Source: a virus
Reading direction: 5' to 3' (one strand)
Virus record (IMG/VR): IMGVR_UViG_3300025102_000019
Span: 6,342 to 70,341 of that record
DNA length: 64,000 bases
In this document: one piece after another, positions 2,388 through 62,707 of the stretch
How the letters are laid out: each line of letters opens with the position of its first letter
How positions within the stretch are numbered: the stretch's first letter is position 1
The notes under the pieces: model-generated
What the model was told of the DNA's origin: nothing
The model's database searches: none
The model's input: the letters and a program-made list of their open reading frames with translations, nothing else
Translations under genes and position numbers: made by a program

Positions 2388-2399
2388 TCATTTACCCCC

Positions 2400-45694: not shown

Positions 45695-47173
45695 TCAGGG
45701 TATTAGCCACCCTCCGCCGGACTGTTCCTTCCCGCCGAACATGCTGTCGAAGCCCGGCATATAATCATCTAGGAGGACAACCGTTCCTTTGAACTCCTTT
45801 GATGCCCAATTAGCGAGAGCCAGACTCATCGCCAAGTCGTCATGAACACCCACGCTCTCAAGCCTGCCGTTCTTCTGCATGCCGAATCTGTTTAACTGGC
45901 TCTCAACCTCATGTGTGTACTTTCTGCTTCTCTCGTCGCCGTATGGTAGTTTGATGTGACCTTGCTCAAACGCCAGAAGTAATGACATGAACAATGACTC
46001 CTTCTTGGCTCTGGTGGTCATGAATACACGGATTGGCATGTCTGCCGCCATCTCCCTCATCTCCTGCTCAAGCATCCTCTGGAAGTTGTTACCCTCAAGT
46101 TCTATCAGTTCGGGACTGAACTTGTTGTTGAGCATTACCATCATCCTCTTTTGTGCCATCGAAGACATACCACGCTCGTGTACGACGTGTACTATCTGCT
46201 TGAACTCCTCATCTGGAATCTGCCTCATGACAGTCATTGCTGTGAAGTCAGCGTTCTTGTCGGATGATATGGCTGGGTCGTGCCCTATGAAGTGTTGACC
46301 GAAGACACCGTCAGGCTCTCCCTCCTCGTTGTAGTTAGTTTCAGCCCTGTCTATCAGGGTGAGTTCTGTATCCCTAGCACCTTCTAGTATGTCCATCGGG
46401 AACATACTGGCCACATCGTGGATAGGCTCGCATAGATACTCACGGCTGAATTGTATTGCTGGCATGGAAAGCCTCCTCTGTTCCAGTGCCTCTATGTTCC
46501 AACGTTCAGGCCAAAGTGCAATTCCCTCGTTGTTTATCGCAGGGAAGGTCTCCACACGGAACGTCTCCTTCTGCTCCAACTCAGCATACAGGTCGTTGTA
46601 ACTGAATGGAGTTCCTACCATCATGAGTTTGCTGCTGTGGTGGAGAACTGGAAGTAGTACACCGTAGAACCAATCTGCGGTTCTCTGTAGTTCAGTGCCG
46701 CTAGTGCCCCACAGGATATCGTCACAGACAACCACGTCGGGGTGGAAACCACGAGTAGCACCACCGACCGACTTGGCCATGATACGAGAGCCGTTGGAGA
46801 ACTCGAAGTACGATTTAGCCCAAGGTCTGCCCTCTGGTATGAGGTCACGAAGACAATCGGTCCTGTCGATGTTGCTTTTTATGAAGCGCATGTGCTCAAG
46901 CGTCTGCTCAAGGGAGTGTGAGAAAATCATGATGTGCTTGCCGGGATTGAATGCGGCAAGCCACAATGCATAGGACATGAAGAACACGGACTTGCCGTGG
47001 TCACGAGATGCTTTCACGCAGTAGTACTGCGATTCTTCAAGTCCGTCCTTCCAAGATTGGTGATGGCCGCTGAACAGGAAACCGAGTATGTCCACGAAGA
47101 AGTACTCGAATGACTTCTTGCACATCTCCCTGTCCATCTGGATGATGAAGTCATCCATCGACTCGTCGCTCAT
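45695..47173 (-). CDS. terL: terminase large subunit
   Basis: Walker A ASRDHGKS, Walker B VVCDD, coupling motif VGTP, RNase H-like nuclease FIGHDPA ... HDDLAMSLALA. Confidence 0.92.
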   Translation of the reverse strand: MSDESMDDFIIQMDREMCKKSFEYFFVDILGFLFSGHHQSWKDGLEESQYYCVKASRDHGKSVFFMSYALWLAAFNPGKHIMIFSHSLEQTLEHMRFIKSNIDRTDCLRDLIPEGRPWAKSYFEFSNGSRIMAKSVGGATRGFHPDVVVCDDILWGTSGTELQRTADWFYGVLLPVLHHSSKLMMVGTPFSYNDLYAELEQKETFRVETFPAINNEGIALWPERWNIEALEQRRLSMPAIQFSREYLCEPIHDVASMFPMDILEGARDTELTLIDRAETNYNEEGEPDGVFGQHFIGHDPAISSDKNADFTAMTVMRQIPDEEFKQIVHVVHERGMSSMAQKRMMVMLNNKFSPELIELEGNNFQRMLEQEMREMAADMPIRVFMTTRAKKESLFMSLLLAFEQGHIKLPYGDERSRKYTHEVESQLNRFGMQKNGRLESVGVHDDLAMSLALANWASKEFKGTVVLLDDYMPGFDSMFGGKEQSGGGWLIP

Positions 47174-48216
47174 TCCATCACCGATTTCAATAACATAAAA
47201 GCCAGTTCCATCGGTTCTCCTGCGGTTTTCTGATTCATAATCATCTGCCGTACCTCAGGAGAGAGTGTAGCGTAGTACTCAGAGGTAGCATCGACACTTG
47301 ATTCTGGGGGAGGAGTCACGCTGGTGGTTGGTGCACTGGGATTGAACATGTTGGGCTGTATTCCTTTCTGCCCCGGTATCGCTTGGTTGCCCCCACCCAT
47401 TGGTGTTCCGTACACTCCGAGTTGGAAGTTCTGGGGCACGTTAAACGCTGAATCTTGGAAATTAGGTCCTAGTTTCTTGTTGGCATCCTCAAGAGACATT
47501 GTAGGAGTTGCTGGAGGGGAGACTCCCACTTGTCCTCCTAGAATCTGGTTTGCTTGGTTTGTACCCATGGTCTGGTAAGGTCCTAGTTGTACCTCTTGTC
47601 CGTACTTCTCTCCGGGTTGAGTGGGTACTGGTTTGGGGTTGCCGTAGCCCGGCATCACAGTTCCGACTGGTAGTTGATTCTCCTTTTCCTGACCTGCATT
47701 GAATGCATCTACCATTGCTGTGTTCTGTCTTGAAAGATTGGCCATGGCTGTTTGCTGTGCGTCAACCGGGTCAAACATCGTGGAGTCGAAGGATGGTTGG
47801 ACTTGGGTGTATGTCCTCGCACCCTGCTCGTTGAAGCCCCTGACCCCTCTGCTTTCAGGTGCTGCACCTTGAGAGTAGTCAGAACTAGGTGCGTTGTATC
47901 TCCCTACCTGATTGCGTCGGTCTTTGAAGTCCTGCACCTTCGCTCCTATCACTGGTGACGCTGTGTCTGCTACCTTACCTGCACCGATATACGTACCCAC
48001 ACCACGACCAGCGGCCATTTGTGCTCCACTCATGAAATCCTGTTGGTTCTCGCTCGCATCTGCTAGGGATGTCAGCGCTGAAAGGCCACCGAGAGCACCA
48101 CCGATTCCTCTTCCTAGTGGTGTCTTTACCCTGAAGGCATCTTGAACTGTATTACCCAGAGCCGCAGATAGAGGTGCAGCAACTGCTGGCGACTTGACGA
48201 GAATCTTGCCCATCAT
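47170..48216 (-). CDS. Q/P/G-rich putative internal (ejected) virion protein
   Basis: Start placed at ATG 48216 (MMGKILVKS), overlapping the upstream stop. Contains a Gly-rich hydrophobic segment GRGIGGALGGLSALTSLA and C-terminal EPMELAFMLLKS. Confidence 0.55.
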   Translation of the reverse strand: MMGKILVKSPAVAAPLSAALGNTVQDAFRVKTPLGRGIGGALGGLSALTSLADASENQQDFMSGAQMAAGRGVGTYIGAGKVADTASPVIGAKVQDFKDRRNQVGRYNAPSSDYSQGAAPESRGVRGFNEQGARTYTQVQPSFDSTMFDPVDAQQTAMANLSRQNTAMVDAFNAGQEKENQLPVGTVMPGYGNPKPVPTQPGEKYGQEVQLGPYQTMGTNQANQILGGQVGVSPPATPTMSLEDANKKLGPNFQDSAFNVPQNFQLGVYGTPMGGGNQAIPGQKGIQPNMFNPSAPTTSVTPPPESSVDATSEYYATLSPEVRQMIMNQKTAGEPMELAFMLLKSVME

Positions 48217-50483
48217 TCTCCCCCCAGTGTGACCTTGACCACCTTGACTACTGATGGTTTGATTTTGTATGCCTTGGCAATCCTGTCCCAATCGCCCTTG
48301 CTGTTGGATATGGTTCTGACATCCTGCTTGGTGATACCGAGTTTCATGGCGAGGAATGACACGTCGTCCTCCTTGTTAGCACTAAGGTTCTCCTTGGGCA
48401 TCTGCTTGAGCACAGCCACGTCCCTTTTGGCCTCAAGCATCTGGACTCTTTCCATTGCTTTCACCAGTCTGTCTTCGATGGATAGTGTATCGAAACTGGT
48501 TGCCACTGGGAAGGAGTCAGTCAACTTTGTTTGATAAGGGCTTTGTGCCGCAGCAGCGGAAGCGACCCTTGCGAGCATATCTCTTCGCTTTTCTTGGTCA
48601 ACGTCTTCTACGGGGTTCATGATGTTAGGTGGTATTTTCCTACCGGTCATCTGCTCGAATTGTGGTATGAATTGTTGCGGGTTCTTAGCCTGTTCTCTGG
48701 CTATCATATCACGAAGCCTATTCATATCTACGCCCGGAGGCACATCAGATGGTGACCACGACGGTTTAGGTGGTGGTGCTTCTGGCTTTGCTTCTGGTTT
48801 CGCCATCGGGTCTGCGTCATCTGTCGATAGTGGTGAGTAGTATGCCTCCGTCATTGCGCTTGGCACGAAGTAGTTCTGCATGTGCTCAGGTAGTGGTCTG
48901 TTGACATCGAGGTGACCATCCAAGTACTTGGGGACTAGGCCGGGTGTGGCCTCTCCTGACACAGGTGCGAACTCACGCACCGTGCCACCGTGACCCAATG
49001 TGATGAGAGAGCCTAAGAGGGAGAACATGTCTTTCTGACCCTGAGAAGTCTCATGAGCAGGTTCTTCTTGGGAGAAGTTAGTGAGAGCGTCTAGACTTCC
49101 TATGACACCTGAGAGTGCGAGGAACTCGGCTGCTGGCATATGCACCGCCTTGCCCTTCTTCTCGTGAGTTCCTTGCTTGTTACCGGCAGTGACCCTCTCC
49201 ATTGCATTGTCGAACATCTGCTGCCCCTGCCCCTTCAAATCGGGATGTCCTATCAGGGTATCTTTGAGAGTATTCACCAACTTATTGACACGTGATGTCT
49301 TCTGAGCGGGGTTGCCGAGCATGAATTGAAGAGCATCAGGACTCATGGCCATCTGGTCTATCAAACTGTCAAGTTCAGGGAACTTCTTTCCGAATCTAGT
49401 CTCTTCGTATATCTCCCTGATTGTAGGCCCTTCAACAGGACCTGATGCGTCTTGTCTCGTGAATAGGGGAGCGTCTAGCATCTCGGTGTTATTCTCGTTG
49501 AGATTGGAGACAATCGCTGGTAGCAATTCCAACATGTATTTACGATAGTTTTCTTTCTTTATGTTAGTGCCACCCGGATTCTTTACTCCCTTTCCATATT
49601 CAGGAAGGGGGTTGAATATGTCAAGAGGCATGTGTTGAACCATCTCCCAGTTGTGAACATCGTCGTGCACCACATCACCTACGGATGAGTGGCCGAGCAT
49701 CTCCCTGAACTCAGGTGGTAGTGTCATGTCATCTGCTAGGTTCTCACCGACCACACCTCTGAGTCTCCTAGTGTTGGGGGATATGTGCCTGCCTGAGATG
49801 TAGCCATGCGTGATTCCCTCATCAAAGTTTGATTTGTAGTTGAAGTCCTCCTTGAGGATGTCGTGTAGATAAGGTGCAAATGGTATCCTGTACGACTCAG
49901 GGTGCTGTGCTAGACCCTGCTTGGAGTGCTTGAGACGGGCATCGCTACTCATGTTGAGGTTGATGAAAGTGCCACCCTTGCCACGAGCGGAGAACTGGTT
50001 CGCCTGCTCTGTGGTTTTTGGACTGGAGAAATCACCCTTGGTCAGCCTCCTCCATTCAGGTGACATGATGTCCTCAGGTAGACTCTGGTTCTTCGCATCC
50101 TGATGGTCGTCGTTGTAGTCGCCTATCGCATCGGTTATCATCTGTCTAGCGACATCACCGCTGCCGACTATCTTGGACACCTTCGCTATCAGTGCGTCGA
50201 TTCCGTGTCGGTGCTCGTTGCCGTGTATGTCGGTGTAGACATGCTCGCCATCAGCGCCCATGCCCCAATCTCCCTCTGCTGCCCTGTCGCCGTATCTGGC
50301 GTTCTTGGGTAGGTCGAACCCCATGTCATTGGTGGGGTTGAGGTCGTGGTACTGGTCTGGGTGGGTGTCTCCTAGAAACACCAACTCACCAGTCAGGGGG
50401 TCAACGGTGTACGTTCCCTCTCCCTTTCTGAGCATGCCACTTGCAAGTAAGGCATGTGTGACGGATTTGAAGAGCAGGCTCAT
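48213..50483 (-). CDS. 756-aa hypothetical protein (putative internal virion protein)
   Basis: Long coupled ORF containing LLFKS, MLRKG and LVKA sites, a PIP-box-like QTKLTDSF and a C-terminal helical HTH-like segment. Confidence 0.6.
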   Translation of the reverse strand: MSLLFKSVTHALLASGMLRKGEGTYTVDPLTGELVFLGDTHPDQYHDLNPTNDMGFDLPKNARYGDRAAEGDWGMGADGEHVYTDIHGNEHRHGIDALIAKVSKIVGSGDVARQMITDAIGDYNDDHQDAKNQSLPEDIMSPEWRRLTKGDFSSPKTTEQANQFSARGKGGTFINLNMSSDARLKHSKQGLAQHPESYRIPFAPYLHDILKEDFNYKSNFDEGITHGYISGRHISPNTRRLRGVVGENLADDMTLPPEFREMLGHSSVGDVVHDDVHNWEMVQHMPLDIFNPLPEYGKGVKNPGGTNIKKENYRKYMLELLPAIVSNLNENNTEMLDAPLFTRQDASGPVEGPTIREIYEETRFGKKFPELDSLIDQMAMSPDALQFMLGNPAQKTSRVNKLVNTLKDTLIGHPDLKGQGQQMFDNAMERVTAGNKQGTHEKKGKAVHMPAAEFLALSGVIGSLDALTNFSQEEPAHETSQGQKDMFSLLGSLITLGHGGTVREFAPVSGEATPGLVPKYLDGHLDVNRPLPEHMQNYFVPSAMTEAYYSPLSTDDADPMAKPEAKPEAPPPKPSWSPSDVPPGVDMNRLRDMIAREQAKNPQQFIPQFEQMTGRKIPPNIMNPVEDVDQEKRRDMLARVASAAAAQSPYQTKLTDSFPVATSFDTLSIEDRLVKAMERVQMLEAKRDVAVLKQMPKENLSANKEDDVSFLAMKLGITKQDVRTISNSKGDWDRIAKAYKIKPSVVKVVKVTLGGE

Positions 50484-51799
50484 GCTGTTCGACCTGCCCT
50501 GCTGGTGTAGATACCAACAGGGTCAGCACCATGCATCTCCTCTTCCTCTATGTTCTCTGTTGGTCCGTTGGGTTTGCTGGTCTGGTCTCTTGAGTTAGAG
50601 GGATGTTTTGGTAAGTTAGAGCCACCACCTGATGTGTCTTTGTCTCCCTTCCCTTTCTTTTTGTTATCCTTCTTGTCAAGTAGCCTTGCCACCTTTTGTG
50701 CGAGTATTCTGAGTTCCTGCTTGTCTCCCCACGTCATCTTGCGACTCTTGCCTATCATCGACATTGATTGGTTGGACATTCTAGGGGAGAAGGATTGTGT
50801 AGAGCCACCCATGTTGAGATGTGGCATACCACTGATTCTGGGTGGTACTATTGGAGGAGCACGATGTGGTTTGAGTCTTGGTCTTGGTACTTTCGGCTTC
50901 ATCTCGCTCGGTAGTTTGGATTGGATTGTGCCCGCACCTGTCTCACCAGCCTTGTACGACCTAGGATTCTTGGGATTGGGTGTTGATTCTGTGACTCTGA
51001 CGTTTCCTGTTCTCTTCCTACCACCTTGAGCACCCATGTAACTCCTGTATGCACCGGGGTCTTTGCTCATCGGTTGCTTGGTTGCGATGGCTCTGTGCTC
51101 CATCTCGACGGAGAGTGGCGCTTGCATCATTCCTCTTTTCTTGCCTCTCGTGACACCTCTTCTCTTGGCTTTGTAAGAACGCTCGGTAGCGTTGATACCA
51201 CCGCTCATCCCTCCCGGTCCTGTCTTGAACTGCCCTGTGCTGGGCTTGAACTTCTTTCTTCTCTCTCGCACCGCTTCCTTGTCGTCTGCTCTACCTGACT
51301 CACTAAGTGGTCTGAGCATAGCGGTATCCGCACTCTCACCGAATGACTTGAGCAATGAGGACCAAGCGTTCTCCATAGGCTCGCTTGTGAATACCGGGTG
51401 GCCGTATGCCGCTCCCGGTCCTTTTGCCTGATTTGCTAAACTGGTCATGAACCCACCATTGCCGGGCGGCCCAGTGAGTGCGTTGATTTCTCCCTCGTTC
51501 GTCAATCTACCTGATAGGCTTCTGGGGTCTTCTTCAGTATCGTCTCTCGTTTCTGATGGGTCGTCCTTGAATTGTTGGAGCATAGCAGGTGTGACCTTGA
51601 CATGCTTTCTATTCTTGAGTTTCTCCTCTTGCTTGTCCTGCTCCTTCTGCTTCTTCTCCTTCTCAGCATCTAGGTACTTAGGGTCACCGGGGTTGTAGCG
51701 ACTCTCGTATCCATCGTTGTACCTGAACATCGTGGATGATTCGCTTCTTGAGTTGTATAGTCTGGTATCGCTACCACGACCCATCATTCCCTCGGTCAT
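50480..51799 (-). CDS. basic low-complexity protein (putative internal/DNA-condensing)
   Basis: K/R/P/G-rich; carries EPMENAWSSLLKS. Confidence 0.6.
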   Translation of the reverse strand: MTEGMMGRGSDTRLYNSRSESSTMFRYNDGYESRYNPGDPKYLDAEKEKKQKEQDKQEEKLKNRKHVKVTPAMLQQFKDDPSETRDDTEEDPRSLSGRLTNEGEINALTGPPGNGGFMTSLANQAKGPGAAYGHPVFTSEPMENAWSSLLKSFGESADTAMLRPLSESGRADDKEAVRERRKKFKPSTGQFKTGPGGMSGGINATERSYKAKRRGVTRGKKRGMMQAPLSVEMEHRAIATKQPMSKDPGAYRSYMGAQGGRKRTGNVRVTESTPNPKNPRSYKAGETGAGTIQSKLPSEMKPKVPRPRLKPHRAPPIVPPRISGMPHLNMGGSTQSFSPRMSNQSMSMIGKSRKMTWGDKQELRILAQKVARLLDKKDNKKKGKGDKDTSGGGSNLPKHPSNSRDQTSKPNGPTENIEEEEMHGADPVGIYTSRAGRTA

Positions 51800-52215: not shown

Positions 52216-52224
52216 CTCCCCACC

Positions 52225-52902
52225 TCACTCGCCTTGCTGTTCTAATAACTGCTCTTTAATCCTCTTCCAACTATCGGGGCTTTCCTTTGCTAATTCGACT
52301 TTTAGTATGTTAAACGTCTGGTTAATTTGAGTACCATCACTGTCTGCCCCCCAACTGTCATTTAACTTCACTAGGTCTTTGATGCTCTCCCTTACCTCTT
52401 TGTGTAGTTTCACTGCATCACCGACGAAACCATCTTCATGCACACTACCGTAATCTAACAACTCATTGAACTTGTCGTTGAGTTTCTCGACATTGGTACG
52501 GAGAACATTGACTTCTTGACCTAGAGTGATAGCGACCTCGAATGCTGCTGCCTTCTTGACGAGAGGTTGGAAGTGGTGTTTCATGTGATGGTAGACCGAG
52601 TTCTCGGAGCAACCGATGACTTCTGCTATATCCTCACTAGGCAGTATACCCTCGAAGTATCCTGTCTCGAACTCCCCTCTCCTGTCATGTGTGCAAACCA
52701 CACAGGAATGGTTGGAATCCATGTGATACTCACCCATGTGATTCTTGAAGTGACGGTCTGCTGTATTGGCCCTCCAATTCATGTCCTTGTCTAGTTGCTT
52801 GCAACTGATTTCACCGTTCAAGAGCGACTGTTCTAGTTGCTCTCTATCATCAGATTGGCAAAAGGCGCAGGACCTCTTGACCACTCGCTCTCGCTCGGTC
52901 AC
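52225..52902 (-). CDS. tandem zinc-finger/HTH protein with C-terminal coiled coil, probable terminase small subunit
   Basis: Two repeats of CxxC...helix-turn-helix...HxxxH (CAFC..RHFKNH; CVVC..HHMKHH) followed by a coiled coil. Upstream of terL. Confidence 0.55.
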   Translation of the reverse strand: MTERERVVKRSCAFCQSDDREQLEQSLLNGEISCKQLDKDMNWRANTADRHFKNHMGEYHMDSNHSCVVCTHDRRGEFETGYFEGILPSEDIAEVIGCSENSVYHHMKHHFQPLVKKAAAFEVAITLGQEVNVLRTNVEKLNDKFNELLDYGSVHEDGFVGDAVKLHKEVRESIKDLVKLNDSWGADSDGTQINQTFNILKVELAKESPDSWKRIKEQLLEQQGE

Positions 52903-52950
52903 GAGTGACCGGAGGTATAATCACCAAATGAACGTTGTTGATTTATAGGT

Positions 52951-53855: not shown

Positions 53856-54886
53856 TGTATCACCTCTGCTGGATTTACTGCTGTTGCTATAGTGGGCACT
53901 ACCGGAGGTGGTGCTTGCATAGTCGCAGCGGGGTTCAGGGTTTGAGCCTGTTGGTTGAGAACTGTGTTGAACGCTTGTTGTGCTGCTAATTGTTGTTCAT
54001 GAGCCTCTCTTTGAAACATTCTCATGTCAAATTGCACCATAGTGATATCATTTGACCCTGTTTCTGGATTTGGTATGTGCCATACGTTGATTCCCTTCGT
54101 TCTCTGTGAGTCTTTCTCAATCTCTTGAAAGAAAGGCTCGTACTTCTGAACTAAGTCGGGCGCTCTAACCTCATTGGCTTGCAGTGATGACACTGGTATA
54201 GTAACTAGACTGACTCCTTTCTTCACCTTGTCCTTGAATCTGCTAGGTCTCATCTCATCTTCCTTGTCTTGAGCGGCTTCCCATTTGCAGAGCAGGTGAT
54301 AGAGGTGTAGATGTTCAGGGCAGTATGTTCCTTTGAGAGTCTTACCGCTGGTTACTCCACTTCTCGCTAAGAATGCTTCAGTTTGACCTGAAATAGGATT
54401 CTGCCAGTACATGTCCCAAAGACTTCTACCTGTATCTTCATCTGTGATTCGTGCGTAGAGGTTGTCGTATTCTATGAGTTGCTTGCAATCACAACCATCG
54501 ACAACACAAGTACCGCTGTCTTTGGTGTATCTGTATGGACTTCCCAACCACCTTCTTGGGTCTAAAACAGACCTCCTTGTTGGTTTGAGTAGTCTGTATG
54601 CCTGTTTGATATCTTTTCTTCTGGCTTTGCGAGGGTCAGCGTGATTGGAGGGGTAGAAGTTTACTTTTGGGACTTCGAGATTCTTCTGTCCTGCTATCTG
54701 CTGCATCTGTTGCTGTGCTATTGCTTGTTCCATAATCGCTGCTTGATTAAACTGAGGATTGCCCATTTGGGCCATGTTCAACATTGCTGCGTCATTCAAA
54801 TTGCTTAGACTCTGAGTTTGCATCGGAGTTCTTGTTATTGTGCGATACATATTATCGGGTACATCTAAGAGACCGCCTACCATCAT
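53852..54886 (-). CDS. hypothetical protein with Cys/His zinc-binding motif and Q-rich ends
   Basis: CVVDGC...YCPEH motif; 344 aa; coupled to its neighbours. Confidence 0.6.
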   Translation of the reverse strand: MMVGGLLDVPDNMYRTITRTPMQTQSLSNLNDAAMLNMAQMGNPQFNQAAIMEQAIAQQQMQQIAGQKNLEVPKVNFYPSNHADPRKARRKDIKQAYRLLKPTRRSVLDPRRWLGSPYRYTKDSGTCVVDGCDCKQLIEYDNLYARITDEDTGRSLWDMYWQNPISGQTEAFLARSGVTSGKTLKGTYCPEHLHLYHLLCKWEAAQDKEDEMRPSRFKDKVKKGVSLVTIPVSSLQANEVRAPDLVQKYEPFFQEIEKDSQRTKGINVWHIPNPETGSNDITMVQFDMRMFQREAHEQQLAAQQAFNTVLNQQAQTLNPAATMQAPPPVVPTIATAVNPAEVIQ

Positions 54887-55107
54887 TCAACCTCCGCTGG
54901 TGTCACATGAATAGACATTTGCCCGTTTTCTGCCGATAAACGCCATTCTACTTTACTTCCAGCAGTCATACCAAACTGCTGAACAATCCACATGGGTATA
55001 GTAGTTCTAAGTGAGTTACTACCCCCTCCTGTGGGGACGAGTGTTGTGGTAGTCTTACCCTTCGCCATGGAGGTCGCACACCCTACTACATCAAAAAGGT
55101 CACTCAA
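54883..55107 (-). CDS. AbrB/MazE/SpoVT-type DNA-binding protein
   Basis: GGGSNSLRTTIPMWIVQQFGMTAGSKVEW matches the swapped-hairpin AbrB pattern common in archaea. The true start may be the internal MAKGK. Confidence 0.7.
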   Translation of the reverse strand: MSDLFDVVGCATSMAKGKTTTTLVPTGGGSNSLRTTIPMWIVQQFGMTAGSKVEWRLSAENGQMSIHVTPAEVE

Positions 55108-55817
55108 GAGGTCAAGAGTTCTACTAAGGTTGGTTCAACATTCCAACCCACACGAGTAGCCATGAAAGCACGCTTTGTTGGTAACCTTGCTTTCTGCAAG
55201 CGAATTAGGTCATCTCTGAAGGGGTCGAATATCTTGTGCTCACCTATTCTGTTTTGCTGCCATAGTTCAGCAGCCTTCTTGTCGAAGAACCTGTCTGCCT
55301 TATTAGCCACTAACATGACCATTCTGGGCGTGTATTTCTTTCCCTTCAATCTGCTTCTAAGAGTTCTATATCTGTAATCTCTCTGGATAAGCCTATCTAC
55401 AAGATACTTGAAACCAGCAACTTGCTCTGCACCTTCAGGTCCACCAGCAAAGGCTCTGTCATCAAACACAAACATGACACATTCCACTTGTCTAGACACC
55501 ATATCGTCAATCCACAGATTCCAGAATCTCTCTTGACCACCTATGTCTGCTGAGTATACCACTCTCTTTTCGCCTTGCCAAGATATTCTTTTCCTAGTGG
55601 GTTTGGGTAGCATATACCTTGTTAGTAACTTGAAATGTTTGGTTCTCTCATCCTCGTGTATCTCTTCCATCTCACCGGGAGTGGTCATATAGCGGTCTAA
55701 TGTGGTCTTGCCAACCATGCTAGTGCCGTAGATACCGACTTTTCTTGGCTTCCATGAGTTGTAGAGGTGTTGTCCGTATATGGCTACACCAACGAGTACA
55801 CTCCCTCCACCTACCAT
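55104..55817 (-). CDS. Ras-superfamily (Arf/Arl-like) small GTPase
   Basis: G1 GTSMVGKTT, G3 DIGGQERFWNLW, VMFVFD strand, G4 VANKAD, G5-like MAT..GWNV. Hydrophobic N-terminal extension. Confidence 0.85.
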   Translation of the reverse strand: MVGGGSVLVGVAIYGQHLYNSWKPRKVGIYGTSMVGKTTLDRYMTTPGEMEEIHEDERTKHFKLLTRYMLPKPTRKRISWQGEKRVVYSADIGGQERFWNLWIDDMVSRQVECVMFVFDDRAFAGGPEGAEQVAGFKYLVDRLIQRDYRYRTLRSRLKGKKYTPRMVMLVANKADRFFDKKAAELWQQNRIGEHKIFDPFRDDLIRLQKARLPTKRAFMATRVGWNVEPTLVELLTS

Positions 55818-55826
55818 TTACTTCAC

Positions 55827-56087: not shown

Positions 56088-56725
56088 CAGTTATCGCCAC
56101 TACCCTTCGTATATCTAAGGTCTGGCGTTCCGTCCTTCTTCAAACGGATATTATTCGATGATATGTCTCTAGGCGGAACTACTGATTCACGAACCATTTC
56201 ATCAGCCAGAGAATCTAAACCAAAACTTGTTGATTGGGTAACATTAGCGTTATGAGACGGAGGTTTTGATGTGTTAAATAGGTCAACTCCTAATCCTGAG
56301 ATACCGGATTGACTGTTAGACATCATAGAAGGGGGCATCTTACCGGGATTCTGCTGCATCCAAAGTAGTTCCTTCTCCAACTGCATCTCCTGCATGCGTA
56401 GTTCCATGTCTGAACGACGCTGGTCGTAGTTGAATTGCTGCTCTCTGAAGCGGTAATCCCTCTGCCTCTGCATCTCTGACATCCTAACTCGCTCTTGCAT
56501 CTGCTCCTCAAAGAACATCTTGAACAAGTAATATGCTAGAATCTGGACTGCTAAAGCCCCCATAGCATATGTCATTCCGTTGACATACTGATTTGCATTC
56601 TCTCCACCGGGCAACCACAATCCAGCATCGTAGATACCTATTGCGACTCCCACTAGAGCCGACTGGGTTAGTATCAACCCAGTCAATCTCATTTCTGATT
56701 TATCCGAAGGGTCTTGTCTACTCAT
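56087..56725 (-). CDS. two-TM membrane protein with coiled coil
   Basis: Two N-terminal TM helices, a Q/R/E coiled coil and C-terminal LKKDGTPDLRY. Confidence 0.65.
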   Translation of the reverse strand: MSRQDPSDKSEMRLTGLILTQSALVGVAIGIYDAGLWLPGGENANQYVNGMTYAMGALAVQILAYYLFKMFFEEQMQERVRMSEMQRQRDYRFREQQFNYDQRRSDMELRMQEMQLEKELLWMQQNPGKMPPSMMSNSQSGISGLGVDLFNTSKPPSHNANVTQSTSFGLDSLADEMVRESVVPPRDISSNNIRLKKDGTPDLRYTKGSGDN

Positions 56726-56778
56726 CTTAGTGACCTCTAGAAAGACCCCACGAGGGTGGCTATCATAAGCCTTCTGTA

Positions 56779-57651
56779 TTATTCATCCGTCTCGTTATCT
56801 GAATATTCGCCTAATTCAAATGGTCTAGTCTCATAATGTGTGGAAGCACGATAGTCCTTAACGGCGCTCGGTTGCACCATACCTAATAACGCTGACAGGG
56901 CAGCAGGTTGCCAATCTTGACTTACAGCGGGATGAAGAGTGTCTGATGCCGAGGTTTTGGATGGTATCTCACCGTGATATCTATTGTATATCACATTCTT
57001 TTTCTCAGGGTCTAAATGAGTCTTTGCTGCGTTGATTCTATGTGCTATTTCTTCAAAACTCTTTTCTATTGGTCTCAAAGTTCCTTTGTCTTTGAAATGC
57101 CTAGCCCTGTTCGCATGCTCCCCCTCCAACGTGAGACTCCCACCTTGTGTATGACTGACATCCTTACGGTTGTGAGACCCGTAGATGCCTCGTCGTCTTC
57201 TTTCCCTATTGAGTTCTTCACGGTATTTTACACGCTCAGGGCTAGACTCGTATTTTGTGTCATACTCTTTCTTATGACGCTGGGCTTCTGGTGAGAGTTC
57301 TCTCTTGAGTAGTTGAAAGATGTGGTCGAAGTCAATATCTTCACTCTTAACAATCGTCGGCTTCCCACCAATCCCCTGTTTCTTGGCTCTTTTGCGTTTT
57401 GTGGCTGACCTTTTTTGTCCACTTGACATCGAACCAGAAGTCTTTGGAGTTTTGCCTGAAACTTTCACCGATGGCCTGCACTTCGGGTATCCTTTTCCAG
57501 ACAATTTTGCTTTCCCCCTCCCGCATGGTGGGTGTTTCCCATCCTTGTCCTTTCTCGATACGTCTACCCACTTTTCCTTGAACCATCGGTTCAGGTTCTT
57601 TACCACTAACGTATTGTGGCAGGTGCAGCGGGAGTCTGAATCGGTACTCAT
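56779..57651 (-). CDS. multi-module basic protein (RWFKEKWVD..C..YPKCRP module + HNH-like module)
   Basis: Modules are separated by LVVK/N, IVK/S, LLK/R and IEK/S sites. The second module (YREELNRERRRRG...DVSH...NRARH) resembles small phage HNH-like proteins. Confidence 0.6.
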   Translation of the reverse strand: MSTDSDSRCTCHNTLVVKNLNRWFKEKWVDVSRKDKDGKHPPCGRGKAKLSGKGYPKCRPSVKVSGKTPKTSGSMSSGQKRSATKRKRAKKQGIGGKPTIVKSEDIDFDHIFQLLKRELSPEAQRHKKEYDTKYESSPERVKYREELNRERRRRGIYGSHNRKDVSHTQGGSLTLEGEHANRARHFKDKGTLRPIEKSFEEIAHRINAAKTHLDPEKKNVIYNRYHGEIPSKTSASDTLHPAVSQDWQPAALSALLGMVQPSAVKDYRASTHYETRPFELGEYSDNETDE

Positions 57652-57839
57652 TTCTTCTTACCTTTCCCTCGAAACTTTCCCCTGCAATATTGTACAGCCC
57701 ATCCATTAGCATAGGCAGACGGATAGACCTTGAACTTCCTTTTTGCAGCGGCTTTACCTGCTGGACAGAGTTTCTTTTCAAGTGTGTCCCATGCACCATT
57801 CATACCGACGCAATGACCACAATCACAAGAACCTATCAT
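57648..57839 (-). CDS. small basic protein (KFKVYPSAYAN family seen in marine phages)
   Basis: LCPAGKAAAKRKFKVYPSAYANGWAVQYC preceded by AWDTLEK. Confidence 0.6.
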   Translation of the reverse strand: MIGSCDCGHCVGMNGAWDTLEKKLCPAGKAAAKRKFKVYPSAYANGWAVQYCRGKFRGKGKKK

Positions 57840-58024
57840 ATCACAAACACCATTTTAGTGATTTTATCAGCGGCTTTTCTCTGAGCATACAGTAAACTGT
57901 AGCAGGGGCATCGAGGTGGTTTCATGGAGCACTTCATCACGCCCTTCTCCATGCATTTGCATGGATTCTTCTTATTTCCACCACAACAACAACTATCTCT
58001 TTTCAATGCCATTAACAATTCCAC
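57836..58024 (-). CDS. small Cys-rich protein
   Basis: CCCGG..C.C....C.....C.C; coupled to its neighbours. Confidence 0.5.
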   Translation of the reverse strand: MELLMALKRDSCCCGGNKKNPCKCMEKGVMKCSMKPPRCPCYSLLYAQRKAADKITKMVFVI

Positions 58025-58791
58025 CTTTTCAATGCTGCTCCTTTCGGGGTTAATTTACCATCCTTGCTCGTAGGGCCTTTACTTCCACCCATTCTAGCAC
58101 AGAAGGACTTTCTTCTCTTCGCCTTTTTACTACCCGGCTTGAGTTTGGATGGCTTGGTGGTGACTGGTGCTTTTAGATTAGCACCTGTTTCTCTTTTCGC
58201 TTTGGCTCGACCTTTCGCATTGAGACCGCCTTTCTTGTGGTGTCTGTTTGGGTTGTAGCCGTGAAACGGCTTGGATTTCTTCTTTGCCTTCTCAAAAAAG
58301 TCCTCAATCAGAGTGCCGAATGCCTGTGTAGTAGGAGAACAGCAGTCACAAAGCGCTTTGACTTGCACGTAAGCGTCTGATTTCATCGTCATGGGGGCTA
58401 GATTGGCCCTAGGAATGCTTCCACTCCTCACATTACTTTCAGTACCACTGAAAATACCGCCGCTAGGCTCTGGTTGCGAGACCGAATCGGTCAGCCCTCC
58501 ACCCCTTACGCCTACTACACCCACATTGCCCTGAGGCAGGCCGAACTTTTTGGCCCTTTCTAATGCGAACTGGTACGCTAGTTCTGGATTATCGGTTGTG
58601 TAGGACACCCTGTCCTCATTCCTGAGACTGGGTGGAACGTAGTGTTTCGAGCGTGTTTTCGGGTTTCCGCCTCTGATTCCTTGGTCGAGAACACCCTGCA
58701 TGTCGATTGTACCGTGATATTCACTGACCGGACCGAGGCTGCTGGGAAAATCAGGGTGGAACTCACCCAGTTCAGTCTGTCTGCTTACCAT
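58012..58791 (-). CDS. ADP-ribosyltransferase-like domain fused to a basic phage module
   Basis: YHGT...VLDQGI...SYTTDNPELAYQFA...VVGV...GSIP pattern of HYE/KptA-like ARTs. C-terminal GGLNAKGR...RRKSFCARM...KRWNC module. N-terminal QTELGEF. Confidence 0.55.
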   Translation of the reverse strand: MVSRQTELGEFHPDFPSSLGPVSEYHGTIDMQGVLDQGIRGGNPKTRSKHYVPPSLRNEDRVSYTTDNPELAYQFALERAKKFGLPQGNVGVVGVRGGGLTDSVSQPEPSGGIFSGTESNVRSGSIPRANLAPMTMKSDAYVQVKALCDCCSPTTQAFGTLIEDFFEKAKKKSKPFHGYNPNRHHKKGGLNAKGRAKAKRETGANLKAPVTTKPSKLKPGSKKAKRRKSFCARMGGSKGPTSKDGKLTPKGAALKRWNC

Positions 58792-58803
58792 GGATAGCCC
58801 TCC

Positions 58804-59319
58804 TTAACGTCTCTGTAGAGGACTCCTTCGCTCGATTGGCGAGTTTTCTCGATTTACCTGTGATAGAATCTCATTTATCGCATTGCGGTAGTAGTCCGTG
58901 GCTTCCGGTGGAGTCTGTGGTAGGTTCTCCCTGCCTTTGTCAGGCTTCCTGTCCATGGGGTTGGGCATGTCGAAGAGGTCTGGCCTCACTCTCTTGAGGT
59001 GCTCTTGGTCTATGTGTAGACCTGAATCTAGAACATCTTCTAAATCAGGCTCGTCTTGTTCGTCATATGAAGGAAAACCATCATCGTCGTATTGTACTGG
59101 TATACCATACTCGTCAAAGTTCTCGTTTGCTCTGCTCAGAGGCCTGCCCATTGCGTCTATGAGGGGCTGGCCCGGCTCGAACTTGAGGAACTGCCACGCC
59201 TTCTTCATGGCTTTCTTGTCTGGTTTCGAGGTTTCAGTGGGTTTTTTCGGCATTTTAGGGCCTACAGCGATAACCAGTGTCATCCCTGCTTTCTTGCCCT
59301 TGTCCTTCATACATATCAC
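58804..59319 (-). CDS. hypothetical protein with internal KKAWQFLK tag
   Basis: 171 aa; acidic domain after the motif. Confidence 0.55.
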   Translation of the reverse strand: MICMKDKGKKAGMTLVIAVGPKMPKKPTETSKPDKKAMKKAWQFLKFEPGQPLIDAMGRPLSRANENFDEYGIPVQYDDDGFPSYDEQDEPDLEDVLDSGLHIDQEHLKRVRPDLFDMPNPMDRKPDKGRENLPQTPPEATDYYRNAINEILSQVNRENSPIERRSPLQRR

Positions 59320-59858
59320 TGATTACGCTGCTCTGGAATCTGAGGGGAGGAAACCCCTACTCTTGAAGGTGCGCTGTCTCTGCCAGAGATACCACTATTC
59401 ATGGCATTCATGTCCCTCATGTGCTCCACGAAGTACTCTTGAGCCACATCGCTGGCCAAACCGTGCATCTCATCATCCATTCCCTGCTCCTCTGCCGTCA
59501 AACCCGGAATAATATTCAGTTTGTTCATGTAGTGGTGTAGTATCTGCTGCTCCTTCTCGTTTCTAGGCTTGTGGTCATCGAAAATCATACCATCGTTGTC
59601 GTCTGACATTGCCTGAGCACGCTCGAAATCATTCAAATCAGGTCCGTCGGAATAATCCTCGTAATCATCTCTGTACGATTTTCTGAGTGTGTTGTAGTCG
59701 TATTGTAGTTTGAAAGCGGCTTTTCTCATGATATAGGCCTTCTTCATCTCGCCACCGCAGCCCATTTTCTTCATGCACTCTGACTTCTTCATGCCGCAAC
59801 TTGGGCACTTCTCGTTGTCTGCTTTCAATAGAGTCCATGCTGTGTCAAATGCGCTCAT
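59316..59858 (-). CDS. AFDxAWxLLK-leader protein with CxxC motif
   Basis: Begins MSAFDTAWTLLKADNEKCPSC. GGAG RBS-like sequence upstream. Confidence 0.65.
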   Translation of the reverse strand: MSAFDTAWTLLKADNEKCPSCGMKKSECMKKMGCGGEMKKAYIMRKAAFKLQYDYNTLRKSYRDDYEDYSDGPDLNDFERAQAMSDDNDGMIFDDHKPRNEKEQQILHHYMNKLNIIPGLTAEEQGMDDEMHGLASDVAQEYFVEHMRDMNAMNSGISGRDSAPSRVGVSSPQIPEQRNQ

Positions 59859-59864
59859 ATTCTT

Positions 59865-60104
59865 CTATCTCCTTCTGGATACTCTTACTAGGCCTGTCTG
59901 CCTACGCATCCTCGGACGTGTGTTACCCCTATCTAGGTTGCGTTTGTAGCGAGCCTTCGTCTTGCGGTTCTTCGTCTTCCTCGCTAGACGCTGGACCTTG
60001 GCTTTAGCCCTCGCTTTTGGTCTATTTGAGATATATTGAGAGGTTTTCATACCGAATTGACCTTTCTTGAGTGACTCGAACGCCAAATCGAACTCAAACC
60101 CCAT
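59865..60104 (-). CDS. small very basic protein with FDLAFESLKK leader
   Basis: R/K-rich, 79 aa. Confidence 0.6.
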   Translation of the reverse strand: MGFEFDLAFESLKKGQFGMKTSQYISNRPKARAKAKVQRLARKTKNRKTKARYKRNLDRGNTRPRMRRQTGLVRVSRRR

Positions 60105-60157
60105 GATTGCAGCGTATAAGGCGACACCATAATTAGTTTCTGCTTCTCCGACGTATC

Positions 60158-60508
60158 ATGGAGTCGGATTACGACATTGAGAAGTTTCTCCCGGCTCTAG
60201 TCGCTGGATTGGCCAGAGTAGGCCCGGCAGCAGCGAAATTAGGCTCAAAAGCCGTACAATCCGCTAAAAAAGTCGGTGTGGCGGCCAAAAACTCGAAAAT
60301 GGGTCAAAATATGGCTAATTTAGCCGATAAAAGCAAGGAAATGAAGGAAACTTTTGATGCAGCGAAGGAAAGTCCGATGGGACAGGCCATGGGTAGTCTG
60401 CAAGAGGCCGCAGCCCGAAATCAGCAGGATACAGCCAGAATGGAGCAGGAAGCACGTCAAAGAATGATGTCTGGTGCTTCCACTGGAAGCACAACCACTC
60501 GTTCTTAG
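60158..60508 (+). CDS. small A/K/M-rich helical protein (only substantial + strand gene in the cassette)
   Basis: No overlapping minus-strand gene; divergent from the gene at 60104; begins MESDYDIEK/FLPALVAGLARVG. Confidence 0.6.
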   Translation: MESDYDIEKFLPALVAGLARVGPAAAKLGSKAVQSAKKVGVAAKNSKMGQNMANLADKSKEMKETFDAAKESPMGQAMGSLQEAAARNQQDTARMEQEARQRMMSGASTGSTTTRS

Positions 60509-60696
60509 GGTTTCATGCCTCTATAGCGTGCGTAAAGCATGCCTGCTTCCTCTTGAAGCCTCAAATCCTCTGAGTTCATCATCTTGAGGATAGTTCCAGT
60601 GATGAATTGGTCCTCTTCAGAGGTGAAATCTACCCCATTCTCCTGATGCTTGAGTAGAAGCCACGCCGCAGCGAAGGCACTCTCGGATACTGTCAT
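60505..60696 (-). CDS. small protein with SAFAAAWLLLK leader
   Basis: 63 aa. A TTATTAAAG TATA-like box lies about 25 nt upstream (60720-60728). Confidence 0.6.
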   Translation of the reverse strand: MTVSESAFAAAWLLLKHQENGVDFTSEEDQFITGTILKMMNSEDLRLQEEAGMLYARYRGMKP

Positions 60697-60772
60697 CGGG
60701 AATACTATGTATGGTGCTGCTTTAATAAGGGTTTAGTTAAAAGACCGTCTTTTGCTCGATGAAACGTCGGTT

Positions 60773-60892
60773 ATGGGTATCAGCGAACTCATTTTTAGCA
60801 AGTTTAGGATGGTAGTAATTGATTTGCTAATCAAAATAGGACTAGCAGGTATGGTTTTGCTGTTCGGAGTCAGTTGGTTACTGTCCCTCTGA
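60773..60892 (+). CDS. possible 39-aa hydrophobic peptide
   Basis: MGISELIFSKFRMVVIDLLIKIGLAGMVLLFGVSWLLSL*; fills an otherwise empty gap. Confidence 0.3.
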   Translation: MGISELIFSKFRMVVIDLLIKIGLAGMVLLFGVSWLLSL

Positions 60893-61156
60893 CCTTTTCT
60901 GCGCTTCCATGGCCTGTCTTGCCCTTTCAATCATGGATTGCTGACCCGGTGAGTGCATATTTCCGTCTCCCATGACGTTTCTCATGCTGTTTCCAGTAGG
61001 TGCACCGCAGTTTTCACAGCGTGGGCTACCCGGATTGAGGCCCTGCTTGCAACTCTGGCAGAACATCGAGTCTATCGCTCGTGTGCCCATTGGGTCATCA
61101 GGCGATGTGGGCATGATGTTCTTCAGAACAGCCCAAGACTTGTCGAATGCGCTCAT
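60878..61156 (-). CDS. AFDxAWxLLK-leader zinc-ribbon protein
   Basis: MSAFDKSWAVLKN...CQSC...CENCG. Confidence 0.65.
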   Translation of the reverse strand: MSAFDKSWAVLKNIMPTSPDDPMGTRAIDSMFCQSCKQGLNPGSPRCENCGAPTGNSMRNVMGDGNMHSPGQQSMIERARQAMEAQKRSEGQ

Positions 61157-61482
61157 TGTCCTTCAACCCCTGATTCATTTTGTGGGTCATATGGTATGCG
61201 AGTCTGACTCTGACCGGGGTCTGGCATCATGCTGTTAGGAGGAGGACTTGCTCTAAAACCCATAGACAATTCAATCAGATACTTGTTATATGCCTCCGGG
61301 TCACTTTGCTTCATGCTGTCAAGATTAGCCTTTGTCTCAGGACTTAGCGTCTCCATGACTTCTGGTGGTAACTGCATTGGTCTTCTGAAACGCCTCTGAT
61401 TGGAGACCTGTTGACCTCTTCTGTTGTTTCTGCTACGCCTACCCATTTTGAGTAAGGACCATGCAGAGTCAAAAGCACTCAT
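61153..61482 (-). CDS. AFDxAWxLLK-leader protein
   Basis: MSAFDSAWSLLKMGRR...; an alternative start two codons upstream overlaps the previous stop. Confidence 0.65.
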   Translation of the reverse strand: MSAFDSAWSLLKMGRRSRNNRRGQQVSNQRRFRRPMQLPPEVMETLSPETKANLDSMKQSDPEAYNKYLIELSMGFRASPPPNSMMPDPGQSQTRIPYDPQNESGVEGQ

Positions 61483-61484
61483 AT

Positions 61485-62096
61485 TCAACCAAACCTTTGT
61501 TTAATGTAGTCTTGAAGCGCTTGGCCCTGTAGTTCTTTGGTGTATTTACTGTCCGGCTGGTCGATAATACCATATTCCTCGTTAGTCATGCCCTCTGGGG
61601 CACTGAAAGACTCCGGTGCTCCCATTGGTTGAGGACCTTTTGCTTCTGGTGGGGCAGAATCACCTACTACAGGAGACCCTCTTTTTCTGGCTCTTCTTTC
61701 CATTTCTGCCCGTAGAGCCTCCATTCTGTCGTTCATCTGAGGTCTTGTGGTGTTCAGGAGTTGTGCATCCTGTGGATTTTCTCGGTCATATTTGTTTCTA
61801 TAAAAGTCCGAATCGTAGTCTTGGAGATGAAAATCAGGGTTTCTCCTACCTTCTCTACGCTGAATCTCGGCAAGTATCTGTTCTATCTGGGCACTCATAT
61901 CAGGTCCTTTCATTCTGAATGGGTCATCACCCATCTGTGGTGTTCTCCTTGGTGGTGGAGCATCCATCACCCTTCGATATTCATCCATCTCCTCTTGAGT
62001 AGTTGGTCCGTCGATTCCATTCGGGTCTACCCGTATTGGGCCTCTCTTCTCATCGAAGTTTTTGAGAAGTGACCATGCAGAGTCGAATGCACCCAT
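61485..62096 (-). CDS. AFDxAWxLLK-leader protein
   Basis: MGAFDSAWSLLKNF... from ATG 62096. A TTTTATC TATA-like box lies about 25 nt upstream. Confidence 0.65.
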   Translation of the reverse strand: MGAFDSAWSLLKNFDEKRGPIRVDPNGIDGPTTQEEMDEYRRVMDAPPPRRTPQMGDDPFRMKGPDMSAQIEQILAEIQRREGRRNPDFHLQDYDSDFYRNKYDRENPQDAQLLNTTRPQMNDRMEALRAEMERRARKRGSPVVGDSAPPEAKGPQPMGAPESFSAPEGMTNEEYGIIDQPDSKYTKELQGQALQDYIKQRFG

Positions 62097-62144
62097 GTCC
62101 AAGCGCAAGGGGGGTCAGGATAAAACCGTTGCTGGCTTTTAGGT

Positions 62145-62233
62145 GTGGCCGGTATCACCTGCGATAGAAACATGAAAGAGTGTTGTCAATTTCGGAACAG
62201 GTTGAGAGATGACAAACAGATGACACCGGCCAC
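62145..62233 (-). ncRNA. candidate structured RNA element (17-bp closing stem)
   Basis: Arms 62145-62161 and 62217-62233 pair fully on the minus strand with two G-U wobbles; these are A-C mismatches on the + strand. Inner TTGTCA/TGACAA stem. Confidence 0.4.
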
Positions 62234-62253
62234 GATGCATGATTACAAGCATT

Positions 62254-62310
62254 CTACTTGTATGTTCTGCTCTTCATTATGCCTCACGCTTGGTCGAAGG
62301 GTTCAATCAT
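62254..62310 (-). pseudogene. relic of a leader-tagged gene (MIEPFDQA*GIMKSRTYK*)
   Basis: TGA (62284-62286) replaces the conserved Trp codon. Shares TTCGACCAAGCGTG with the leader of the 62303..62707 gene. Confidence 0.55.
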
Positions 62311-62707
62311 AAAGACCACCTAATCCTTTCCAATCCTCAACACCATAAGGTGTTTGAGCATCAAAATGAAGCCCGGAAGCAGGGTGATACACCCATTGGT
62401 GAATTGCAGGGTCATCGGGATGATTCATAATCTGAGCCTCGCCGCCGTTTTCCTCGATTAAATGATGGAGATTATCGGAGAAGTCGAAACAATGACTTTC
62501 ATGCTCACTAGGGTCAGAGGGCCAATCGCCACCATCTGCTAGTATGCTTCTCTTTGACGGGCCATTTTCAAGAGAATGATGGATGAAATCTGTTATGTCG
62601 CTCGTATCTATCTTGAGCAAAGCCCACGCTTGGTCGAACGGCGTGCTGACAGACGACTTGCCAATGCGTGCAGCCATGCTATTATGGACAAGGCCTTCTG
62701 CCAACAC
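62303..62707 (-). CDS. transglutaminase/papain-like (Cys-His-Asp) domain protein with PFDQAWALLK leader
   Basis: HCFDFSDNL...HQWVY...HFDAQ gives a C-H-D triad pattern. Confidence 0.55.
   Translation of the reverse strand: MLAEGLVHNSMAARIGKSSVSTPFDQAWALLKIDTSDITDFIHHSLENGPSKRSILADGGDWPSDPSEHESHCFDFSDNLHHLIEENGGEAQIMNHPDDPAIHQWVYHPASGLHFDAQTPYGVEDWKGLGGLYD

Follow-up and report, generated by a model that had tools for sequence, protein, structure and literature searches.

A portable twelve-residue peptide on unrelated magrovirus proteins, a candidate capsid-loading signal

Tagged genes of the window

We analysed a 64,000-nucleotide stretch of viral DNA, called the window here, which comprises bases 6342-70341 of the 70,341-base IMG/VR record IMGVR_UViG_3300025102_000019, rated 66% complete. 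The minus strand carries nearly all of its genes, and in the order of transcription a cassette of small genes (62.7-59.3 kb) is followed by a conserved block, a head module and the tail genes. An earlier note, made from the sequence, had pointed to a short peptide of the type AFDxAWxLLK, which we call the tag, on otherwise unrelated proteins (the part behind the tag is called the cargo), and had proposed that it loads them into the virus head. All twelve peptides that it listed are present, in frame and on the minus strand, in the places it gave. The first, PFDQAWALLK, does not stand at the GTG start given for its gene but begins 12 residues after the ATG at 62677. The twelve genes are listed below, with scores in bits from the matrix search that follows.

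62303..62677, minus strand: t62, 125 residues from the ATG at 62677; tag PFDQAWALLK at 62612-62641, 12 residues in; 32.2 bits; cargo without a known family
61485..62096, minus strand: t61b, 203 residues; N-terminal tag MGAFDSAWSLLK at 62061-62096; 32.5 bits; charged, low-complexity cargo
61153..61482, minus strand: t61a, 109 residues; N-terminal tag MSAFDSAWSLLK at 61447-61482; 35.7 bits; a basic peptide behind the tag
60878..61156, minus strand: t60z, 92 residues; N-terminal tag MSAFDKSWAVLK at 61121-61156; 27.9 bits; zinc-ribbon-like cargo (DZR_2 match, E 1.4e-4, under the Pfam cut-off)
60505..60696, minus strand: t60, 63 residues; tag SAFAAAWLLLK at 60649-60681, five residues past the Met; 23.8 bits
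59865..60104, minus strand: t59b, 79 residues, basic; degenerate tag-like N-terminus FEFDLAFESLKK at 60063-60098; -0.7 bits
59316..59858, minus strand: t59, 180 residues; N-terminal tag MSAFDTAWTLLK at 59823-59858; 36.9 bits, the best of the window; Cys-rich then acidic cargo
58804..59319, minus strand: g58b; tag MKKAWQFLK at 59182-59208, at whose Met translation may start; 18.2 bits
57648..57839, minus strand: g57b, 63 residues; MNGAWDTLEK at 57774-57803, a doubtful, degenerate copy
56779..57651, minus strand: DUF5872 protein, 290 residues; degenerate internal tag FDHIFQLLK at 57304-57330, at the junction before the C-terminal module; 2.9 bits
50480..51799, minus strand: p439, conserved, basic and of low complexity; internal tag PMENAWSSLLK at 51347-51379, one residue longer than usual
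47170..48216, minus strand: p373, rich in Gly, Gln, Asn and Pro and encoded directly upstream of the terminase; tag PMELAFMLLK at 47185-47214, four residues short of the C-terminus; 13.5 bits

A regular expression for the tag core gave 8 matches in the minus-strand frames of the window and none in the plus-strand frames. We then scored the window with an ungapped position matrix trained only on 264 tags of other contigs, with a threshold of 10 bits. Across 55 open reading frames (ORFs; 21,275 residues) eight positions reached this threshold, divided 0, 0 and 0 over the plus frames and 2, 4 and 2 over the minus frames, while 100 shuffles of the residues gave a mean of 0.03 such matches and a maximum of one. 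These eight strong copies score 13.5-36.9 bits. Six of them lie at or near N-termini; the remaining two are the one at the possible internal start of g58b and the one four residues from the C-terminus of p373.

Four of the listed copies score weakly: FDHIFQLLK (2.9 bits), FEFDLAFESLKK (-0.7 bits), PMENAWSSLLK (-1.7 bits, with one residue more than the ungapped matrix allows for) and MNGAWDTLEK, which falls outside the best 30. Comparison with orthologues backs three of the four, those of p439, the DUF5872 protein and g57b. The p439 tag is clear in 5 of 7 homologues, and in the L155 homologue two copies flank an inserted zinc-ribbon module. A canonical tag stands at the same junction as the degenerate one of the DUF5872 protein in 8 of 14 homologues. 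Among nine homologues of g57b the motif is kept in five, cut by a deletion in two and absent from that place in two.

We found that the copies differ by synonymous codons and that the DNA upstream of them is unrelated, so that what is conserved is the peptide and not the DNA. The cargo is indeed otherwise unrelated, as the earlier note had said, since the best pairwise BLAST match among ten cargo parts of the window has an E of 0.22. Searches of the tagged proteins of the window against Pfam and PHROGs gave only weak zinc-ribbon matches plus DUF6321 and DUF5872. The earlier note's label of C-H-D enzyme for one of the cargo proteins found no support, with neither a Pfam nor a PHROG match and no informative neighbour in an ESM Atlas search with t62. 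Inspection by eye of the intergenic gaps of the window revealed no recognisable shared promoter motif.

The tag in related viruses and in host genomes

We scanned IMG/VR with the back-translated core of the tag and obtained 78 stretches. In the 77 newly fetched loci at least one tag headed by an ATG was found in 71, at least two in 50 and at least four in 32, with a maximum of 12. The loci then in hand gave 395 loose matches; 227 have a methionine exactly three residues upstream, and many of the others have GTG or TTG there. The 283 N-terminal copies correspond to 268 distinct proteins of 13-663 residues (median 176), and their consensus is M-[TS]-A-F-[DE]-x-A-W-x-[LVI]-[LV]-K. K12 is the same in all of 119 representatives, in which F4, A7 and W8 each reach at least 90% conservation. 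The Lys comes directly after the hydrophobic pair in 266 of 270 copies and one residue later in the other four. It is followed by Ala in 85 of 262 copies or Met in 60 of 262 (6.2-fold), and then by Pro in 87 of 262, enrichments of 4.6- to 6.2-fold. AlphaFold models of two cargo families place a helix at residues 3-11.

When 260 cargo parts of at least 40 residues were compared by BLAST they fell into 125 groups, 83 of them singletons. Homologues nearly always keep the tag, often diverged, at the same boundary, and cassettes differ greatly even between close relatives. Thus the tag is a portable module on unrelated cargo (268 distinct proteins, 125 groups) with a nearly invariant Lys. One record of 142 kb (L145) had a single tag-like match and no capsid protein homologue, and we took this match to be chance.

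A second form of the tag, [GS]-E-P-M-[DE]-[IL]-A-[WFY]-x-L-L-K, occurs within proteins, at module junctions, and polyproteins of the DUF5872 type carry up to three internal tags each. DUF5872 and DUF6321 domains, which are known from many marine viruses, here make up polyproteins of very variable length whose modules are parted by internal tags (56779-58791, minus strand, in the window; homologues L088, L092, L094 and L147). The DUF6321 protein of the window has no N-terminal tag, and its homologues in the relative G002 have one.

We ran a strict DNA pattern on one genome per species for 185,579 prokaryote species. This gave 54 stretches with a single match each, 30 of them in frame. An N-terminal tag with others close by was seen in a single case, on a 106-kb contig (G006 contig 2; L206, L235) from a single-cell assembly of Poseidoniales; this contig encodes a capsid protein 63% identical to that of the window and has six tag-like matches in 8 kb. 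The cell may have been caught during infection. We conclude that the host does not use the tag peptide; the tag is restricted to viruses, and its receptor, judged from this distribution, is probably viral. The contig also ties the virus group to Poseidoniales. Separately, 13 of the 30 in-frame matches belong to one bacterial family, mostly of Armatimonadota (L181, L186, L190 and ten more loci), in which a peptide identical to the tag core stands about five residues before the stop; this looks like an unrelated coincidence.

The position of the tag within whole genomes was examined in G002, G003 and G004, relatives rated 92-94% complete whose capsid proteins are 62-84% identical to that of the window. 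We found that 38 of the 40 matrix matches of at least 10 bits in these three lie on the structural strand, outside the replication block, and cluster upstream of the terminase. For G003 the structural strand has 14 of 16 matches, at 69-99 kb, eight of them in the last 5 kb, and the opposite-strand block encodes DNA polymerase B, a cytosine methylase and a primase subunit. For G004 it has all 16, of which 15 lie at 76-95 kb and one among the tail genes. All eight matches of G002 are on that strand too, and two of them belong to genes inserted 1.6-2.6 kb downstream of the capsid gene, where conserved head-tail genes flank them, so that they lie inside the head-tail operon. The expectation that the tag would be absent from replication genes is therefore essentially borne out, with no copy or one weak copy per replication block in the three relatives. 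The companion expectation, that it would lie near head genes, stands as far as the strand is concerned and has to be qualified as to distance: from the main cassette to the terminase downstream of it there are 12 kb in the window and about 25 kb in G003.

A virus-encoded group II chaperonin (Cpn60/TCP-1) is present in three of the four near-complete tagged genomes, and in G003 it lies among the tagged genes on the opposite strand.

G003, 90854-92293, plus strand: group II chaperonin
G004, 2258-3766: group II chaperonin
G002, 66225-67661: group II chaperonin

Head proteins, cargo and gene order

The capsid protein of the window shares 32-35% identity with its counterparts in the haloarchaeal siphoviruses HVTV-1, HCTV-1 and HCTV-5. 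The same relation to haloarchaeal siphoviruses has been described for magrovirus capsid proteins, together with a ligase in the structural module (PMC5434244). With this capsid relation, the chaperonin in three of four relatives, the Poseidoniales single-cell link and a weak ligase match, the window belongs to the magroviruses, which are tailed viruses of marine archaea of the Poseidoniales. IMG/VR holds hundreds of contigs with capsid proteins 77-99% identical to that of the window.

Two head proteins share the ending of the tag, that is, a hydrophobic pair followed by Lys.

34592-35995, minus strand: prohead serine protease (S78 type, residues ~16-175) fused to the scaffold, the proposed cutter; a conserved FRILK (35492-35506) lies where protease and scaffold join, and the C-terminal tail MSWDEVHNLA (34616-34645) is conserved too
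33444-34589, minus strand: major capsid protein, HK97 type; conserved ELLK (34488-34499) then Ala, residues 31-35, in the N-terminal arm

For the protease the matches are Peptidase_S78 (E 2.4e-10) and, among PHROGs, HK97-like head-maturation proteases. The HK97 protease cuts its own capsid protein after a Lys, and we propose the ELLK-Ala of the capsid protein as a candidate maturation site. The tag-like ending that the earlier note had seen at the capsid N-terminus is real: [LI][LI]K[AS] occurs in the N-terminal arm in 8 of 8 magroviruses, with variable flanks and, in five of the eight, a 20-30 residue insertion just after the motif. HVTV-1 has M-S-K-A at the aligned place. The protease domain likewise ends in a hydrophobic pair then Lys in 8 of 8 magroviruses. 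When the capsid profile was searched against the sequences of solved structures, it gave one weak match (E 0.0067) and no close structure showing the mature N-terminus. A complex predicted from the capsid protein, the protease-scaffold and the N-terminal 40 residues of one tagged protein, with an alignment for each, scored 0.00 against a mark of 0.32 and counts neither way.

Two further resemblances were set aside. A resemblance between the window's tag type and the scaffold was rejected: the matrix scores there are low (given below), profiles of the internal tags and of the scaffold aligned over only seven columns (wrLLK with FrILKED, P 0.035), and a reduced pattern that does match the tail had been written after the tail was seen, which makes that test circular. 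The tripeptide LLK has seven of its nine non-tag sites in the head module; we did not use this excess as evidence, as only the capsid site and the site of one small protein are kept in orthologues.

In another magrovirus group we found a different, 8-residue N-terminal tag, M-[ST]-W-x-x-I-L-K (L296, L348, L265, L276, L317 and others). It heads at least three N-termini in 21 of 120 fetched loci, with up to 12 in 14 kb, and five of five records with it encode a homologue of the window's protease-scaffold (E 3e-79 to 4e-91). Both magrovirus tags end in a hydrophobic pair then Lys, and the W-x-x-I-L-K spacing is found in the window only at the p439 copy. The start of the shorter tag resembles that group's own scaffold tail, M-[SD]-W-x-[DE]-[IV], whereas no significant likeness of this kind exists in the window's group. 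G003 and G004 have the window's tag with a different scaffold tail, and hence a simple match of tag to tail does not hold in this group.

Among the 119 cargo representatives nine Pfam families were matched, by one member each. The largest cargo family (24 full-length sequences) is not encoded in the window. Its fold begins two to four residues past the Lys; His 16 never varies, and the conservation of Gly 17 and Thr 18 is 90% or more. An AlphaFold model of it has a mean predicted local distance difference test (pLDDT) score of 81.3, and in a Foldseek search with this model the best 17 listed matches were Tpt1/KptA (E 1.8e-4 to 1.1e-2, probability 1.00, template-modelling score 0.36-0.41), followed by DarT and toxin ADP-ribosyltransferases at E above 0.04. 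Judging from the model, the family appears to have a Tpt1/KptA-type ADP-ribosyltransferase fold, and on this basis the cargo looks like effectors. The second-largest cargo family checked (14 sequences, pLDDT 75.5) gave no fold match in Foldseek (best E 0.71). Zinc ribbons are present in other cargo.

The conserved block between the cassette and the terminase encodes DUF6321, DUF5872, small GTPase-like, AbrB/MazE-like, Gln-rich and helix-turn-helix proteins, as well as three large low-complexity proteins of 439, 756 and ~350 residues. Further genes of this block, the head module and the tail region are as follows.

55104-55817, minus strand: P-loop protein with a weak Roc/Ras match, in the conserved block between cassette and terminase
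54883-55107, minus strand: AbrB/MazE-like protein, in the conserved block
52225-52902, minus strand: zinc-finger and helix-turn-helix protein, in the conserved block; it could be the small terminase
45695-47173, minus strand: large terminase, in the head module; an HNH protein is next in order
42737-44473, minus strand: portal, in the head module
36045-41624, minus strand: 1859-residue protein between portal and protease, with a weak ATP-dependent DNA ligase match (E 0.0024, under the Pfam cut-off)
6963-23666, minus strand: one ORF of 5567 residues in the tail region; the G002 counterpart has 5576 residues

The weak ligase match in the 1859-residue protein fits the ligase reported in the magrovirus structural module. 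In the tail region a 290-residue protein (24885-25757, minus strand) has a tag-like peptide of 7.1 bits at residue 191, and in G004 a tail-region gene carries a stronger one, of 22.6 bits, close to its start. A plus-strand ORF of 116 residues (60158-60508) lies within the tagged cassette and is kept in three relatives; the most distant is 38% identical (E 9e-9), and the overlapping minus-strand ORF is conserved less. It is probably a real antisense-oriented gene that divides the cassette into two units.

Proposed function and comparison with known systems

We propose, by analogy, that the tag is a capsid-loading address which ends in a head-protease site and works like the capsid-targeting sequence (CTS) of T4; we see the chances of this being right or wrong as about evenly balanced. 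The 12-residue tag would be a portable address label in the form of a short amphipathic helix, and this helix would dock the protein onto a conserved virus-encoded receptor during procapsid assembly, which would bring the tagged protein inside the head. The S78 prohead protease would then cut at the tag ending, two hydrophobics then Lys, and this would free N-terminally tagged cargo from its label and split the multi-module polyproteins. The cargo, fast-changing small and mostly uncharacterised proteins including enzymes of predicted ADP-ribosyltransferase fold, would enter the Poseidoniales cell with the DNA. Docking, cleavage and injection are what we infer. The conserved face (F, A, W, L, L), the invariant small Ala and the invariant Lys of the peptide suit a helix docking into a specific groove; compared with known systems, the tag looks like a docking helix ending in a maturation site. 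A wider proposal is plug-and-play delivery, in which any protein given a 12-residue LLK helix would be docked into the head, clipped by the HK97-type protease and injected, with more than 100 unrelated effector families, ADP-ribosyltransferases among them, acting in the Poseidoniales cell ahead of all viral gene expression. We offer it tentatively and lean slightly towards doubting it.

Several observations weigh against capsid loading. The p373 copy has only four residues behind it, so that cutting there would achieve little and at least this copy must act by binding. In the halovirus HVTV-1 a head region of 41 kb encodes the same type of capsid protein and protease and no tag. The earlier note had also seen the motif throughout the scaffold, but we could not reproduce this, with a best matrix score of -7.6 bits in the protease-scaffold and -33 bits in its tail. 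In net charge 71% of the cargo is negative and 7% basic (n=262), whereas the internal proteins of T4 are described as touching DNA phosphates via lysines (PMC3012670). G003 has one tag-like N-terminus (14.5 bits) at the end of its replication block. The main cassette is the promoter-proximal end of the structural-strand array, beside a divergent region, and being so far upstream of the terminase it could be an early host-takeover block. Finally, the viral chaperonin could be the tag receptor instead.

This last point leads to an explanation in which the tag is a docking peptide for a non-capsid hub, be it the viral group II chaperonin, a replication or assembly compartment of the Gln/Asn-rich conserved-block proteins, or a host complex, and the tagged proteins do their work in the infected cell without ever being packaged. 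That F, A, W, L-L and K are so strictly conserved points to a specific groove and not to which one it is, and a hub would sit well with the mostly acidic cargo and with a promoter-proximal cassette far from the capsid gene. For the chaperonin in particular, its presence in three of four near-complete tagged genomes, its place among the tagged genes of G003 and the targeting of fusion proteins to GroEL by the N-terminus of T4 gp23 (PMC3012670) are suggestive, although very small zinc ribbons and unstructured peptides would be odd chaperonin clients. Sorting derived from the host is unlikely since no host genome carries the tag. A hub also leaves unexplained both the match of the tag ending with the capsid protein and the protease-scaffold junction and the tagged insertions in the head-tail operon, and we judge it rather unlikely overall.

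The peptide might instead be mainly a processing signal for a viral or host protease, for example in the timed activation of toxic enzymes, with no role in packaging. Nine conserved positions before the Lys go far beyond the normal needs of a protease site, even though the invariant last-position Lys and the enriched Ala or Met at +1 and Pro at +2 (4.6- to 6.2-fold) are what a cleavage site would leave. Internal copies exactly at module junctions, and the hydrophobic-pair-plus-Lys conserved at two expected cleavage points of head proteins, also speak for processing; the p373 copy, which would free just four residues, and a 12-residue propeptide with no obvious inhibitory role on zinc ribbons and unstructured peptides of 60-90 residues speak against it. 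Moreover, the procapsid interior is where a prohead protease of the S78 type would be expected to work, which brings packaging back. We hold processing alone to be quite improbable. A functionless peptide, with the shared start a by-product of cassette evolution such as a recombination joint or an efficient translation start, would be very surprising. Synonymous codon differences and unrelated upstream DNA argue against it, as do internal copies, a C-terminal copy and divergent homologues that keep the residue pattern and not the DNA. It would account for the Met right after the tag in 60 of 262 copies (6.2 times background), as if the tag had been put before an existing start codon, and for cassettes that are very different between close relatives.

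Full-text searches of the literature gave no description of the tag. The motif strings were unmatched, none of the papers listed brought capsid targeting or ejection proteins together with magroviruses or archaeal tailed viruses, and a term search in the main text of two magrovirus papers did not turn up an N-terminal motif. In surface seawater, magroviruses are reported to be the dominant part of the archaeal virome (PMC5434244). A function has not been assigned to most of their genes, and here one sequence rule picks out a coherent class of 7-12 per genome, with 125 groups of cargo among the proteins sampled, and suggests a common fate for them. Should the tag be a loading signal, the range of capsid-targeting codes would widen from T4 and P1 to include archaeal viruses whose proteases are of the HK97 type, the tagged proteins would make up a list of candidate anti-defence and host-takeover effectors for an uncultured, ecologically important host, and there would be a short peptide to try for packaging foreign proteins. 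Were the delivery proposal true as well, an archaeal virus would for the first time be described with a capsid-targeting code, and with a cargo repertoire larger than that known for any other virus, and a large block of viral dark matter would become a defined class of injected effectors. If the tag docks elsewhere, it would still define a new virus-specific sorting system.

The closest parallel to the proposed capsid-loading address is the CTS of T4. T4 has a handful of CTS carriers, and Alt, one of its packaged proteins, is an ADP-ribosyltransferase, as the largest magrovirus cargo family would be by its predicted fold. The CTS loads internal proteins into the scaffolding core and can do so for foreign proteins, and the internal proteins of T-even phages are described as diverse defence proteins in which only the CTS is conserved (PMC3012670). 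A short N-terminal peptide shared by unrelated proteins from a variable locus was found here too, as the only common part of diverse, fast-changing small proteins encoded together. The two differ in several ways: the peptides have no sequence relation, the magrovirus protease is of the HK97-type S78 family and not of the T4 type, and the proposed magrovirus cut is after Lys. The host is an archaeon, the cargo is mostly acidic, each genome has far more carriers (7-12 N-terminal copies), and the tag also occurs in polyproteins and at a C-terminus. Since the protease family differs, the magrovirus tag is an analogue of the T4 system and not a member of it.

Encapsulins also use short terminal peptides on unrelated cargo, which bind the inside of an HK97-fold shell, and the likeness lies in that arrangement. 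Encapsulins have no DNA, portal or protease, and their peptides stay on, whereas the window virus has terminase, portal, protease and tail genes. For phage P1, an N-terminal stretch of at most 30 residues of DarB is described as sufficient to send a reporter into an HK97-like capsid, and the Dar cargo as being injected and protecting the DNA; in the same account the Dar proteins share no consensus N-terminus (PMC9024508). In contrast, the magrovirus tag is one consensus on more than 100 families.

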